This document shows, piece by piece, positions 6,024-64,000 of a stretch of DNA of 64,000 nt (position 1 is its first letter; each line of letters opens with the position of its first letter). This DNA comes from a virus (taxonomy: Duplodnaviria; Caudoviricetes). Below the pieces are notes generated by a model. That model was not told where the DNA came from, made no database searches, and worked only from the letters and a program-made list of their open reading frames with translations. Location: positions 32,001 to 96,000 of the IMG/VR virus record IMGVR_UViG_3300013121_000027; one strand, given 5' to 3'. The translations under genes were made by a program, and so were the position numbers.

Positions 6024-6065
6024 CGGGACGTAGCTCAGCTTGGTAGCGCACCTGCTTTTGGTGCA
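6024..6065 (+). pseudogene. 5' half of a tRNA-Pro, truncated after the anticodon loop
   Basis: CGGGACG TA GCTC AGCTTGGTA GCGC A CCTGC TTTTGGT GCA; no T arm or 3' acceptor strand follows. Confidence 0.7.
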
Positions 6066-6081
6066 AAAAATCCAAACTTGA

Positions 6082-6276
6082 TCTTCTGCCAACGACTACT
6101 ATGGGATTAAGTGTTGTAATGAAAACTGCCTTTTAACCGTTAAACAAATTAATATTCCAAAAGAACTTATAGATGTCCATCATATTGATGGCAATAGAAG
6201 TAACAATAATTTAGATAATTTAATACCTCTTTGCGTATGGTGTCATGCTATCACAACAAGAAATGTTATACTATAA
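6082..6276 (+). pseudogene. HNH endonuclease remnant (not in the ORF track)
   Basis: Frame reads ...CCNENC...ELIDVHHIDGNRSNNNLDNLIPLCVWCHA...; upstream in-frame TGA at 6079 and no start codon. Confidence 0.75.
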
Positions 6277-6283
6277 AATTTAC

Positions 6284-6354
6284 CGGGCATTGGTATAGTG
6301 GTAAAACACTTGCTTTGGGAGCAAGAGTCACAGATTCGATTTCTGTATGCCCGA
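6284..6354 (+). tRNA. tRNA-Pro(TGG)
   Basis: CGGGCAT/ATGCCCG acceptor; CTTGC-TTTGGGA-GCAAG anticodon arm; ACAGA-TTCGATT-TCTGT T arm. Confidence 0.9.
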
Positions 6355-6357
6355 CTT

Positions 6358-8235: not shown

Positions 8236-8245
8236 CTAATGGTTT

Positions 8246-8272
8246 TCCGAGATAACTCAATCGGTTAGAGTA
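8246..8272 (+). pseudogene. tRNA 5' fragment (acceptor strand plus D arm)
   Basis: TCCGAGA TA ACTC AATCGGTTA GAGT A, then the sequence switches to the HNH promoter. Confidence 0.6.
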
Positions 8273-8275
8273 TTG

Positions 8276-8284
8276 TGATATAAT
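8276..8284 (+). promoter_or_regulatory. Extended -10 promoter, probably giving a leaderless HNH transcript
   Basis: TG-A-TATAAT ends 6 nt before ATG 8291; no SD sequence. Confidence 0.55.
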
Positions 8285-8290
8285 GTAGAT

Positions 8291-8806
8291 ATGTCATATA
8301 AATACATTAAATCATTTCGCGAACGAAGACGAGTTTTCTTACGGGAATACCTTGGTGGTAAATGTGTCATTTGTGGGGCTACAGAGGAGTTGGAATTCGA
8401 TCATATAAATCCAGATTTAAAATTATTTGATATTTCTAATCATTTACATTTAAATCTTAAAGATCTTTTGATCGAAGTTAATAAATGTCAACTTCTCTGT
8501 AGCCCCCACCACATCGCTAAAAGTATTAGAGATTCTTTAGGAAAGAATTCTTGGAATGCAGGTACTGCTACGCATGGAAAACGTTATACTGCGTATACTT
8601 TAAATTGTAATTGTAATAAATGCGATCAGTTTAAAATAAATCAAAGATCTAAAACTAATCCTTATATTCATTTTGGTGGATCACAAATTATTCACGGAAC
8701 AAGAGGTGGCTATTTGAAAGAGGGGCGGTTAGGATTGGAGAGATGTGAAGCTTGTAAGAAAGCGAATGCAGAGTACCATAATAAATTTCGAGGACGTATA
8801 GTTTAG
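8291..8806 (+). CDS. HNH endonuclease with C-terminal HG...C..C repeats
   Basis: CVICG...LEFDHINP...CQLLCSPHH; two HG(K/T)..Y....C..C motifs. Confidence 0.85.
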   Translation: MSYKYIKSFRERRRVFLREYLGGKCVICGATEELEFDHINPDLKLFDISNHLHLNLKDLLIEVNKCQLLCSPHHIAKSIRDSLGKNSWNAGTATHGKRYTAYTLNCNCNKCDQFKINQRSKTNPYIHFGGSQIIHGTRGGYLKEGRLGLERCEACKKANAEYHNKFRGRIV

Positions 8807-8866
8807 CTTGGTTAAAACATTATCCTGATAAGATAAAGAGCGGAAGTTCAAATCTTTCTACGTCTA
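8792..8866 (+). tRNA. tRNA-Ile(GAT), overlapping the HNH stop codon
   Basis: GGACGTA/TACGTCT; TTATC-CTGATAA-GATAA; GGAAG-TTCAAAT-CTTTC. Confidence 0.9.
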
Positions 8867-8868
8867 CT

Positions 8869-25260: not shown

Positions 25261-25316
25261 TATAAATATGAATAAATATTGTCGAATATATAGCCATAGA
25301 GATTTTCCCCTCTCTA

Positions 25317-25392
25317 CTGGCTGTATCCCCTCAATCTTATAAATTGTTGAAAGGGTAGATGGTACACGTGGGTTCAATCCCCACCAGCCAGA
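25317..25392 (+). tRNA. Non-canonical tRNA-like RNA, anticodon TAT (Ile), no conventional D arm
   Basis: CTGGCTG/CAGCCAG-A acceptor; CAAT-CTTATAA-ATTG; GTGGG-TTCAATC-CCCAC; D-loop-like TAGATGG lies 3' of the anticodon arm. Confidence 0.7.
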
Positions 25393-50795: not shown

Positions 50796-50928
50796 GTCAA
50801 AGCCGAATAAAATTCTTTATCGCCTTTCAAGCGGGTGGTCACAGGTTCAAATCCTGTCAAGGGCTAATTCCCTTTGTAGCTCAGTCCGGTAGAGCACCTA
50901 AACGAGGATTTTAAAAACTTGTTTTGAC
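50796..50928 (+). ncRNA. Y RNA-like unit 5, YrlA-type circularly permuted tRNA mimic
   Basis: GTCAAAGC-CGAA...ACTT-GTTTTGAC; T arm ACAGG-TTCAAAT-CCTGT, then closed acceptor AAGGG-CTAATT-CCCTT, then D arm TA-GCTC-AGTCCGGTA-GAGC. Confidence 0.85.
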
Positions 50929-50936
50929 GCCCTCTA

Positions 50937-51243: not shown

Positions 51244-52827
51244 ATGACTACCGATCCTCTGATGCAGTTCAATATGCAGACCACTCCTCAGACTCAGCAA
51301 GCTGATAAGGCTCAGGTCCAGAATAATGCTGGTGGGTTTTCTTTTGAGGTTTCTACCGATCAGCGTCTGCTTCGTTTCTTAATTCTTGGTACTTGGGGCG
51401 GAACTTATTACGTCTCTGAGCAGAAGCTTACTAAGGATTCTTTCGAGAATGTTAAGAAGCTGGTTGACATTGACGGAAAGAAGGTTGTTGATATGGTACT
51501 TGATGTATCGCTCAACAACCGTGCTTATAAGCAGAACCCAACTCTGTTCACTCTCGCTGTAGCTTCTGCCGCTGATGACGTTGAGACTCGTCGCTATGCT
51601 CTTGCCGCTGTAGAAAAGGTATGCCGTACTGGCACCATGTTCTTCCAGTTCCTTGCTTATACTGAGCAGTTCCGTGGCTGGGGTTCCGCTCTTCAGAAGG
51701 CTGCTGCCAATTGGTACACTAATAAGACTCCCGATCAGCTTGCTAATCAGCTTGTCAAGTACCGTCAGCGTGATGGTTGGACTCACCGTGACGTTTTGCG
51801 TCTTGCAAAGCCTAAGATCGCCGCTGACAACCCTATCACGCCAGCTATTCGTTGGACCGTAGGTAAGGATACCGATCCCATTCTGCTTCCAGAGCTGATC
51901 TATGGCTTCCAGGAAGCTCAGAAGGTCACCAATGCTAAGGAGTGGGTGAAGCTTATCGAGCAGTATAAGCTTCCTTGGGAAGCTCTGCCAACCCAGGCTC
52001 TCAATGAGCCTTTGGTTTGGGAAGCTCTTGCTCCCCATATGGGATTGACTGCCTTGATTCGTAATCTTGGTAAGATGAGCGCCTGTGGTGCTCTTGTAAA
52101 CCATAGTGATCTTTCTAAGATTGTCAATGGTCGCCTCAGCGACAAGGAAGCATACCTCAAGGCTCGCGTACATCCAATGCAAGTTCTTCTTGCTCAGAGT
52201 GTTTACTCTGCTGGACGCGGCTTTAAGGGTAATAATACCTGGAATCCAGTTGCAACTGTTGTAGATAATCTTAATGAGGGATTCTATGCTGCATTTGGCA
52301 ACCTTCCAGAAACTGGTAAGCGTCGTATGCTTGCCATTGACGTGTCTGGGTCAATGGGCATGGGCACAATTGCTAATACCTTCTTGACGCCTCGTGATGC
52401 CTCTGCTGCACTTGCTATGGTAGCCCTTCACCAGGATCCGGAAAGCTATACCTTTGGCTTCTCTGGTGGCTTCATTCCTCTTGGCTTGTCCAAGGGTATG
52501 CGCTTGGATTCTGTTATTAAGAAGGTCAATGGTCTTCCTTTTGACAGAACCGATTGTGCTCTGCCTATGGTACACGCAAAGAAGGATCAATTGAAGGTGG
52601 ATTCATTTGAAATCTATACTGACAACGAGACCTGGGCTGGTAAGATTCATCCTCATCAGGCATTGAAGGACTACCGTGCTTGGTCTGGCATCAATTCCAA
52701 GTTTGTTGTAAATGGTATGGTCGCAAACAACTTTACTGTTGCCGATCCTAAGGATCCAGGATCGATCGACGTAGTTGGTTTCGATGCCTCTACCCCAAGC
52801 ATGGTATCAGATTTCATTTGCCAATAA
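51244..52827 (+). CDS. rsr: Ro60/TROVE RNA-binding protein (Rsr ortholog)
   Basis: NNAGGFSF, RFLILG..GGTYY, KYRQRDGWTHRDVLRL, ALIRNLGKM, DVSGSM vWA, TDNETW, GFDA..P. Confidence 0.95.
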   Translation: MTTDPLMQFNMQTTPQTQQADKAQVQNNAGGFSFEVSTDQRLLRFLILGTWGGTYYVSEQKLTKDSFENVKKLVDIDGKKVVDMVLDVSLNNRAYKQNPTLFTLAVASAADDVETRRYALAAVEKVCRTGTMFFQFLAYTEQFRGWGSALQKAAANWYTNKTPDQLANQLVKYRQRDGWTHRDVLRLAKPKIAADNPITPAIRWTVGKDTDPILLPELIYGFQEAQKVTNAKEWVKLIEQYKLPWEALPTQALNEPLVWEALAPHMGLTALIRNLGKMSACGALVNHSDLSKIVNGRLSDKEAYLKARVHPMQVLLAQSVYSAGRGFKGNNTWNPVATVVDNLNEGFYAAFGNLPETGKRRMLAIDVSGSMGMGTIANTFLTPRDASAALAMVALHQDPESYTFGFSGGFIPLGLSKGMRLDSVIKKVNGLPFDRTDCALPMVHAKKDQLKVDSFEIYTDNETWAGKIHPHQALKDYRAWSGINSKFVVNGMVANNFTVADPKDPGSIDVVGFDASTPSMVSDFICQ

Positions 52828-55037: not shown

Positions 55038-55116
55038 GCCTCAGTATCGGTCCGGGTTTCTACCCCGTCATTAACACCGTAATTGGAGTATGCAGGTTCG
55101 AATCCTGTCTGAGGTA
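55038..55116 (+). tRNA. Non-canonical tRNA-like RNA, anticodon TCT (Arg), no conventional D arm
   Basis: GCCTCAG/CTGAGGT-A; CGGG-TTTCTAC-CCCG; GCAGG-TTCGAAT-CCTGT; TAATTGG lies 3' of the anticodon arm. Confidence 0.7.
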
Positions 55117-57435: not shown

Positions 57436-57478
57436 GGGGCTATAGCTCAATTGGTAGAGCACTTGCTTTGCAAGTGAA
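57436..57478 (+). pseudogene. 5' half of an interrupted tRNA-Ala(TGC)
   Basis: GGGGCTA TA GCTC AATTGGTA GAGC A CTTGC TTTGCAA GTGAA. Confidence 0.8.
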
Positions 57479-57958
57479 GCGACCCGATTTTGTTAAAAAA
57501 TGTCGCTCTTCGTGACATGTAGGGCATATGCAAACAAGATTATCTACTTTATTATTTGTTCTATCTCTATCTATATGATGAACATGTAGAATTTGTGGTA
57601 TTTTATTGTATCCACAATCTTCACAATAATTTTTTTTTGCAAAACTATAATCTCCACTTCCAGTTCCATAATGTCGTGGCATAATCTCCTTAACTCCACC
57701 AATTCTTTGTGCTAAATCTTTATGATTTCTACAGCAAAAATATAATCCAGACTTTGAATTTTTCTTTTTTGAATTATTCATATAAAATTTTTTATTACAA
57801 TAAGAACAGAACACATTTGGCTCTAATTCTTTTTTATTTTTTCGTTTGAATTTACTAGAACAACTTACAGAGCAAAATTTTCCATGTCCTCTATTTATAT
57901 ATCTTGGTTCTGTTAAGAATTTCTTATTGCATTGTAAACAATTTTTTTCTATTTGCAT
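57440..57958 (-). CDS. HNH endonuclease, antisense, inside the split tRNA-Ala (start revised to MQIEK)
   Basis: CxxC..F.....FCS..C repeats; CEDCG...LHVHHIDRDRTNN..DNL..ICPTCH...H; GAGGA RBS on the minus strand. Confidence 0.85.
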   Translation of the reverse strand: MQIEKNCLQCNKKFLTEPRYINRGHGKFCSVSCSSKFKRKNKKELEPNVFCSYCNKKFYMNNSKKKNSKSGLYFCCRNHKDLAQRIGGVKEIMPRHYGTGSGDYSFAKKNYCEDCGYNKIPQILHVHHIDRDRTNNKVDNLVCICPTCHEERHFLTKSGRFTCKASALPIEL

Positions 57959-57969
57959 TGGGTCCTCTT

Positions 57970-58041
57970 GGGGGTATAGTATAATCGGCAATACAGTAGC
58001 TTTGCAAGCTTCAGTCCTCGGATCGTAACCGGGTACCTCCA
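57970..58041 (+). tRNA. tRNA-Ala(TGC), intact copy inside the insert, with an atypical T loop
   Basis: GGGGGTA/TACCTCC with G3:U70; GTAGC-TTTGCAA-GCTTC; CTCGG-ATCGTAA-CCGGG. Confidence 0.8.
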
Positions 58042-58061
58042 CTATAGTAAAGGATTAAGAG

Positions 58062-58096
58062 GTGAATTGCATGGGGTTCGATCCCCCATAGCTCCA
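58062..58096 (+). pseudogene. 3' half of the interrupted tRNA-Ala
   Basis: GTGAA TTGCA TGGGG-TTCGATC-CCCCA TAGCTCC A; TAGCTCC pairs with GGGGCTA at 57436. Confidence 0.8.
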
Positions 58097-58947
58097 CTAT
58101 GGAAACAAATAAAGTAATAACAGAATTTAAATCAGAACGTGAAAAAGAAATAAATATCATGACCAATGCTGTTGCTTGGTTTATTGGTACATATAATATG
58201 GATCCAAAACCACCAGTAATAGATATGAATGATGCCGATACTGAAATGTATTTAGCGGCAGTTACTCGCGCCTATGATATGTTAGAAGCGTATAGGCAAA
58301 CCTCTAAAGAAAATAGGCAAGCAATGATCGCTGAAGATTATAAAAACTTTTTGAAAGAACAAGATAACTATGCGGAAGCGACAGAAACGCAAAATAATAA
58401 ATCGCTTGAATAAATTTCAAGTAAGGGATATGATGGAGAATAAGTTACGCGCAAAACTTATTCAATCAAGTAAAATATATAAAAGAAGCCAAGGTAAAGC
58501 CAAATTTCATGAAGAAGATTAAATGAAGCACTGTTGTTTTTCCGGATGTAACATTCTAACCTGTGGTCATTGCATCCGTGAATGGTGCAGTTGTGCTTAT
58601 TTACCGCCGAAACCAACTACTCCTCCACCTACTATTCAGAATAGAGCAAAACCCCAAATTCCAAGAGTCGATATCTACCAAGCCAGAGTTGGTCCACTTA
58701 TTTACGAATCCGAAGAACAAAGAATTCGCCGTCTTTCAAATGATCATTCTACTTCCCTTGAAGAACAAGTAAATCAAAAATGGGGAAGAGGTATGTTTGA
58801 TTGGACTATAGGTAAAGTTAGAAATAATGAAAAAGATCTTTGGTTTTGGTATTGCGGTGATGGCGAAAATAAGCAATGGAAACATAGTGGTTTAGCTAAT
58901 ACTATAAATGAAGCATTACAAGCAATGATAGATTTACCATAAAACAA

Positions 58948-61222: not shown

Positions 61223-61296
61223 GTGGGTATGGTAATGGTTAACCGGCACGGCTCCAACCCGTCGCATAGGAAGAGGTTCGATTCCTTTTACCCGCG
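61223..61296 (+). tRNA. tRNA-Trp(CCA) with atypical geometry
   Basis: GTGGGTA/TACCCGC-G; ACGG-CTCCAAC-CCGT; AGAGG-TTCGATT-CCTTT. Confidence 0.7.
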
Positions 61297-63799: not shown

Positions 63800-63836
63800 G
63801 CCCTTGTAGCTCAGTTGGTAGAGCAACGCTTAGGTA
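63800..63836 (+). pseudogene. 5' half of a tRNA (Thr-like)
   Basis: GCCCTTG TA GCTC AGTTGGTA GAGC A ACGC...; no intact 3' half. Confidence 0.65.
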
Positions 63837-63904
63837 TTAATTAATTCGTTATTCGATTCGGTCTTATGGCTATTACTATAGTTGTATGACTGAATTAACA
63901 AAAC

Positions 63905-63976
63905 GCCCTTTTAGTATAACGGCTATTACATCGGTTTTGTACTCCGACGATGCGAGTTCGACTCTTGCAGGGGGCT
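63905..63976 (+). tRNA. tRNA-Thr(TGT)
   Basis: GCCCTTT/AGGGGGC; TCGGT-TTTGTAC-TCCGA; GCGAG-TTCGACT-CTTGC. Confidence 0.85.
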
Positions 63977-64000
63977 CTTGCGAGCAATGCGGTAAGCCAA

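Follow-up and report, generated by a model that had tools for sequence, protein, structure and literature searches.

Organization of the locus

The DNA analysed here, referred to below as the window, is a stretch of 64,000 nucleotides, positions 32001-96000 of a phage genome that is complete at 231,459 bp and has direct terminal repeats. The genome carries more than 20 dispersed tRNA genes, and matching DNA comes from activated-sludge, wastewater and aquaculture metagenomes. At the locus studied, the two matching halves of a tRNA-Ala(TGC) gene flank an intact HNH endonuclease gene, whose family is tied to tRNA-Ala(TGC), and a second, complete tRNA-Ala(TGC) (Table 1).

The 5' piece comprises the acceptor strand GGGGCTA (beginning at 57436), a D stem of 4 bp and the TGC anticodon loop, and bacterial-type tRNA-Ala contigs match it with as few as 2 differences. 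The 3' piece consists of the T arm (58072-58088), the acceptor strand TAGCTCC and A73 at 58096; the ATG of the next gene follows at 58099, 2 nt beyond. The acceptor strands of the two halves pair at 7/7 positions, including the Ala determinant G3-U70. Two stop codons lie within the 5' piece, that of the HNH gene (57440-57442, minus strand) and that of an upstream 76-aa ORF (57443-57445, plus strand). Two other assignments were rejected: a tmRNA, as the 5' piece has a D stem and a TGC loop and neither ARAGORN -m nor Rfam calls one, and an 'intron-containing tRNA-Ser(GCT)' reported by ARAGORN over 57436-58097, which is an artefact of a forced join.

The HNH gene is a stand-alone ORF with its own ribosome-binding site, outside any intron or intein. 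Its product has Cys-rich repeats (CxxC...CxxxC) at the N-terminus and an HNH domain at the C-terminus, with Pfam scores above the cut-off for both HNH_3 (29.4 bits) and HNH (22 bits). Residues H127, H128, D130, N135, N140, H149 and H153 are intact and, like the Cys pairs, are invariant in 40 aligned homologs. Fold and PDB searches returned only weak, generic HNH matches, and among cultured phages neither a close homolog nor a carrier was found. The last ten residues of the protein (CKASALPIEL) and its TAG stop are encoded by the antisense strand of the tRNA-Ala 5' half; this can be read directly in the sequence and agrees with the initial annotation, as does the presence of a complete, divergent tRNA-Ala(TGC) in the insert.

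This inner tRNA, which is head-to-head with the HNH gene, has G3-U70, discriminator A and an atypical T loop, and CCA is not encoded. It is identical to the old 5' half at 28/39 positions, and the two tRNA-Ala share a 10-nt identical stretch across the anticodon. At positions 39-41 it has GCT, not GCA, the triplet that pairing predicts for the old gene at this locus. Among related loci, enzymes that are 74-82% identical adjoin tRNAs that are merely 44-69% alike, so the partner tRNA is often exchanged; partner tRNAs do not follow the HNH tree (Mantel rho 0.07, P = 0.06). The idea that the inner tRNA is fixed cargo of the element was rejected given such swapping. An antisense promoter inside the replacement tRNA was also considered and rejected, as it showed no enrichment across loci (5/36 vs 9/89).

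Table 1. Features of the interrupted tRNA-Ala locus and of other loci mentioned in the text (window positions unless stated otherwise).
Feature	Position	Strand	Basis or remark
5' piece, positions 1-39 of broken host-like tRNA-Ala(TGC)	57436-57474	+	tRNA homology
HNH endonuclease gene, 172 aa	57440-57958	-	intact ORF, Pfam HNH_3 and HNH
Left GTGAA	57474-57478	+	antisense encodes F-T of the G-R-F-T tail of HNH
Ribosome-binding site of HNH, AAGAGG	57964-57969	-	5 nt ahead of ATG
Complete divergent tRNA-Ala(TGC)	57970-58042	+	ARAGORN; Rfam 51.5 bits
Spacer, probable HNH promoter/operator region	58043-58071	-	contains right GTGAA
Right GTGAA	58062-58066		within spacer, abuts TTGCA conserved in relatives
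TTGCA, copy of Ala anticodon loop, candidate operator	58067-58071	+	
3' piece of broken tRNA-Ala	58072-58096	+	T arm, acceptor strand, A73
Pro, Ile and Thr 5' stubs	6024-6355, 8244-8867, 63800-64000		
tRNA-like genes overlooked by default ARAGORN	55038-55116, 61223-61296, about 25313-25392		Arg-like, Trp(CCA) and unassigned cloverleaf-like 3' end
tRNA with CTA anticodon	50082-50155		amber-suppressor-like
YrlA match	50796-50931		Y RNA-like
Ro60/TROVE gene	51244-52827		
3' ends with near-adjacent ORF start	6354, 8866, 12188, 50152, 55859, 58096, 59028, 60182, 61296		
Second nested cassette, tRNA-Gln	L414:354-1197 = genome 26753-27596		outside window
GIY-YIG-like ORF (L416)	genome 10510-11128	antisense	outside window
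Intron-split tRNA-Ala(TGC)	L055:2049-2344		220-nt group I-like intron

Position of the break

Secure tRNA homology stops at 57474, where ordinary tRNA-Ala contigs diverge from the window, and restarts at 58072. The initial annotation had recognised both halves but gave them wider limits (57436-57478 and 58062-58096) and proposed the GTGAA present at both junctions as a possible target duplication; the halves and the repeat are real, but secure homology gives narrower limits and GTGAA is probably not a target duplication. The two GTGAA copies lie on the canonical diagonal (chance 0.015-0.046), but joining the halves there yields a poor anticodon stem, with one mismatch and two G-U pairs. A competing join, TAAG-AGGT, gives a 5/5 anticodon stem and a variable region of 12 nt (chance about 0.01). 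The left copy is coding and is probably element sequence, the G-R-F-T tail form being found in HNH homologs too, and other nested loci share no on-diagonal repeat. With weak statistics, a rival join and a coding left copy, target-site duplication by GTGAA is doubtful. Together with the end of secure homology at 57474, the two joins, the coding left GTGAA and the conserved TTGCA place the break between tRNA positions 39 and 49.

The insert region shows 0-1 differences from contigs of four other studies, which span HNH-tRNA-spacer and spacer-3' half-next gene; at the left junction, none of these contigs bridges with 31 nt on both sides. As the inner and right junctions are bridged by independent contigs, misassembly is unlikely.

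Search for splicing signals

Of the 597 nt of the insert, the HNH ORF and the inner tRNA take up all but 40. The initial annotation had seen no group I intron core, and we confirmed this: the R/S (P7) motifs are missing from the insert, and the same test detects them in the intron of a related locus (L055). Rfam likewise reports no intron in the insert, but it also missed the L055 intron. For the GTGAA join, no register has both U at the 5' exon end and G at the intron end. A search for a bulge-helix-bulge or complementary arms by junction cofolding gave only a short interrupted helix, and neither RtcB nor EndA is encoded in the complete phage genome; a search for T4 ligase lacked a positive control. 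An integrative element at a tRNA att site was rejected, as the insert has no integrase and the sole junction repeat is 5 nt.

Association of the HNH family with tRNA isotypes

We identified 357 HNH homologs; 164 loci were fetched and reduced to 108 non-redundant ones, in which neighbouring tRNAs were counted within 400 nt. A tRNA-Ala(TGC) gene was found in 83 of these 108 loci, the next anticodon reaching 10, and several of the remaining loci contain Ala genes missed by ARAGORN. All four orientations of HNH gene and tRNA occur. Viewed from the tRNA side, the family is patchy, being found near only 4 of 113 pattern-fetched phage tRNA-Ala genes. In a sister clade (SH-aLRT 100 in a quick version of the tree), tRNA-His(GTG) is beside the HNH gene in 17/19 rows. 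In this clade (L151, L143, L164, L149, L139, L153 and others) the HNH gene immediately precedes tRNA-His(GTG); His 5' stubs occur in L139 and L153, and several loci have tandem HNH genes.

The complete nested layout is also present in five other phages (L030, L035, L154, L023 and L411). Paired acceptor strands were detected at 4/77 loci (0.7 expected; 0/81 in controls); the window is one of the four, and another is doubtful. In addition, 5' stubs lie beside HNH genes in L001, L033, L104, L109, L113, L123 and L127, and end mostly at positions 38-43. Most loci have only an HNH gene and an intact tRNA, as expected if the halves decay. A count of orphan pieces (15/109 vs 1/84) was set aside in favour of inspection, as whole tRNAs overlooked by ARAGORN and the 3' ends of tmRNAs are among the pieces counted.

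Two further forms of tRNA-Ala(TGC) were seen among the loci collected. In L055 a group I-like intron interrupts the gene within the anticodon, separating positions 34 and 35, and a free-standing HNH gene of the family adjoins the tRNA; the locus is a candidate for collaborative homing. A common phage class (L170-L286, e.g. L172, L175 and L201) has a re-wired D arm, with GG at 8-9, GACTGC...GTGGTC and a variable loop of 6-8 nt.

An anticodon-loop motif upstream of the HNH gene

The spacer between the inner tRNA and the 3' half contains a sigma70-like pair (ATGCAA-17-TACTAT) that is weak, scoring near the shuffled mean; for head-to-head loci as a group, the promoter score gave P = 0.045. The spacer also carries TTGCA, and this copy of the Ala anticodon loop recurs beyond the tRNA 3' end in 17/24 head-to-head relatives vs 8/77 controls. 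Counted outside tRNAs, TTGCA/TGCAA occurs 45 times upstream of HNH genes vs 8.6 expected, and 17 times vs 11 downstream; some of these upstream matches may be -35 boxes or what is left of broken tRNAs. The motif is often placed between the -35 and -10 boxes and is palindromic in some cases. In six loci (L060, L023, L017, L006, L013 and L087) a hairpin-like GTGGAG...TTTGCA...CTCCAC lies 3' of the intact tRNA-Ala; such remnants are possibly older broken alleles turned promoter/operator.

A loop motif specific to the His clade had been predicted, and it is present: after removal of tandem genes and stubs, TGTGG/CCACA was found at 7/10 loci vs 1.2 expected, and TTGCA at 2/10 vs 1.5. This clade-specific motif, a property of the family by statistics only, matches the design of a target-like operator of the I-TevI type at the nuclease's promoter, and probably points to the site recognised by the enzyme. 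At head-to-head loci the tRNA lies between the ORF and the probable promoter, which suggests why the tRNA travels.

Anticodon stems of neighbouring tRNAs

Any Ala(UGC) tRNA must retain the loop, so immunity to an enzyme that reads it has to come from the flanks. Among tRNAs of canonical length, GCA at positions 39-41 was found in 3/34 genes beside an HNH gene vs 40/83 without HNH, and after dereplication at 80% in 3/31 vs 15/44; these results need to be read with the caveat that the stem test was chosen post hoc, after inspection of the data. The class of tRNAs with a long D arm shows no difference (4/17 vs 8/43), and in all GCA is retained in 11/93 tRNAs neighbouring HNH. Of the stubs or interrupted genes, 5/12, counted by eye, have the GCA-type stem. 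The spare tRNA may escape cutting through differences around the loop, although the 10-nt stretch that it shares with the old gene across the anticodon speaks against this. The D-loop sequence GGTAGAG was rejected as a resistance determinant: once the sets are dereplicated and the patterns matched, the difference in its frequency (1/93 vs 19/89) is not significant, and L365 is a counterexample.

Other tRNA loci in the same genome

A tRNA-Gln gene in the same genome has the same nested layout with an unrelated HNH. This second cassette consists of a 5' half ending at U33, an antisense 216-aa HNH gene of another family, a full tRNA-Gln(TTG), a spacer with TTGG-CAAA (a mimic of the Gln loop) and a 3' half. 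The Gln enzyme's two nearest relatives are likewise head-to-head with tRNA-Gln(TTG), and its wider family is spread over Gln, Leu and Trp. The window also has 5' tRNA stubs for Pro, Ile and Thr, which lie close to HNH genes and full tRNAs and for which 3' halves were not seen; the HNH gene at Pro is decayed, and the one at Thr overlaps the tRNA-Thr gene and continues past the window end. Elsewhere in the genome, an antisense ORF (L416) combines a GIY-YIG-like N-terminus with the same Cys-rich DNA-binding repeat and adjoins a divergent tRNA-Glu-like gene.

Default ARAGORN overlooked three tRNA-like genes of the window: an Arg-like gene, a Trp(CCA) gene and an unassigned cloverleaf-like 3' end. 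The window also encodes an amber-suppressor-like tRNA, a Y RNA-like YrlA match and a Ro60/TROVE gene, in a genome without RtcB. At 10/27 tRNA or half-tRNA 3' ends, including both orphan 3' halves (Ala and Gln), an ORF starts 1-3 nt past the discriminator (background 3.7%). This leaves no space for a Shine-Dalgarno sequence, and such ORFs are possibly leaderless mRNAs produced by tRNA 3' processing.

A probable homing endonuclease with a proposed co-inherited resistant tRNA

We consider it likely that the HNH protein is a free-standing homing endonuclease specific for tRNA-Ala(UGC) genes, that the inner tRNA is a co-inherited resistant allele and that the halves are the scar of insertion. The protein would bind the loop sequence TTGCA and nick or cut just 3' of it in canonical-stem alleles, with GCA at 39-41. 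During co-infection, the cut in the recipient tRNA-Ala would be repaired from the donor by illegitimate or microhomology recombination, and the repair would copy in the HNH gene, the donor tRNA-Ala and the promoter; since this promoter probably lies on the far side of the donor tRNA from the HNH ORF, an insertion that is to be expressed would have to bring the tRNA. The donor tRNA would restore Ala decoding while its differences around the loop spare it from cutting, and the promoter copy of TTGCA would act as an autorepression operator, as in I-TevI. The halves would decay in most relatives; at this locus two ORFs also have their stop codons in them, and the next gene may owe them its 5' context.

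The initial annotation had already proposed a homing element that offsets the loss of its target by supplying a cleavage-resistant isoacceptor instead of splicing. The core of that proposal is supported by the isotype linkage, the stubs, the nested twins, the missing intron core and the depletion of GCA stems, with the refinement that the replacement tRNA is often swapped; cleavage and resistance are inferred. Neither an empty allele nor a close relative was found: homolog searches left both flanking proteins as singletons, single-protein and DNA-pattern scans of viral contigs were blank at low depth, and no contig from the four other studies joins across the insert.

Alternative explanations

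The halves could instead be a passive scar, an HNH gene of a tRNA cluster having been carried in along with an adjacent tRNA-Ala when tRNA genes recombined with one another, so that the nuclease was not the cause and the tRNA was not selected for resistance. Such an origin fits the retention of halves at a minority of loci (paired acceptor strands at 4/77), the partner tRNAs that do not track the HNH tree and the empty allele that was not seen, but it is improbable, as it leaves unexplained the isotype specificity, the reciprocal upstream motifs of the Ala and His clades, the stubs ending just past the anticodon and the stem depletion.

Bacterial tRNA-Ala(UGC) genes are usually within rRNA operons. 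A domesticated nuclease might cut these host genes during takeover, with the phage keeping an immune tRNA-Ala and its own split copy being collateral damage. The broken half is indeed host-like in its close match to bacterial-type contigs, and the invariance of the catalytic residues also fits; however, the patchy occurrence of the family, the four orientations relative to the tRNA, the decayed HNH gene at the Pro locus and the unrelated HNH families at other tRNAs resemble selfish turnover and make such a role quite improbable.

Removal of the insert at the RNA level, as an intron or by excision of the inner tRNA followed by ligation, to leave two working tRNA-Ala is highly improbable: the outer acceptor stem does form in the fold of the whole 661-nt unit, ARAGORN accepts both joins at a relaxed threshold and a tRNA inside a tRNA intron has been reported from Lak phages (10.1101/356790), but the few bases to spare, the R/S (P7) motifs missing despite the L055 control, the exon and intron ends, the lack of RtcB and EndA and the halves that are degenerate or lost in relatives all stand against it.

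Relation to known systems

In a literature search that covered few subscription papers, no description of this layout or of isotype-specific HNH cut-and-replace cassettes was found. Endonuclease elements of fungal mitochondria bring a replacement 3' end of atp6 or rps3, and integrative elements restore a tRNA at attL/attR. As in these cases, the insertion compensates the interrupted gene with target-gene sequence; they supply a fragment that fuses with what remains of the resident gene, however, in contrast to the whole divergent gene supplied here by an insert that has no integrase.

The nearest characterised case is SegB of phages T4/T6, which is likewise free-standing in a phage tRNA region, cleaves within tRNA genes and spreads with neighbouring tRNA genes (PMC2330249; PMC13096335). 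SegB recognises a T-loop motif common to many tRNAs (PMC2330249), and its neighbours favour no isotype (PMC13096335); it is a GIY-YIG enzyme encoded between intact tRNAs, unlike the isotype-tied HNH gene found here inside its broken target together with a tRNA copy of the same anticodon. The proposed intron-free mobility also resembles intronless homing by the T4 Seg/Mob enzymes, whose HNH members nick their targets, and illegitimate repair from a co-infecting donor has been described for T4 (PMC2988022). The L055 locus, with its ORF-less intron in the Ala anticodon, resembles collaborative homing (PMC2988022). The enzymes of those systems cut hundreds or thousands of bases from their gene; the break found here, by contrast, lies right at the end of the HNH gene and destroys the resident target gene. 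As in I-TevI, a target-like sequence overlaps the nuclease's own promoter (PMC2988022), but the mimic here, a candidate operator, is a 5-nt anticodon-loop motif that is sometimes palindromic and changes with the clade (Ala vs His).

The nearest published structure comes from Lak megaphages, large phages in which an interrupted tRNA-Thr gene encloses a tRNA of its own type (10.1101/356790). In the part of that report available to us it is interpreted as an intron and a nuclease is not reported, in contrast to the HNH gene and the missing splicing signals of the present locus.

A broader proposal is tentative, slightly less likely than not: large phages may host small zinc-finger HNH nucleases that each read the anticodon loop of one isotype (Ala for the present family and His for its sister clade, with Gln and others read by a second family) and act as cut-and-replace gene drives. 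These could be a main cause of the unusual and rapidly diverging tRNA genes of large phages, and also of the structures reported there as a 'tRNA inside a tRNA intron'. The divergence of phage tRNAs is usually ascribed to host anticodon nucleases or to codon needs. The locus offers a ready test set: the 172-aa enzyme is intact, one allele is predicted to be sensitive and another resistant, and an operator is predicted as well. The sister clade of different specificity would be useful for mapping recognition. If the proposal is true, some annotated phage 'tRNA introns' would be re-read as insertion scars, and isotype-specific homing nucleases would be an added selective force, at the DNA level, on tRNA genes themselves.
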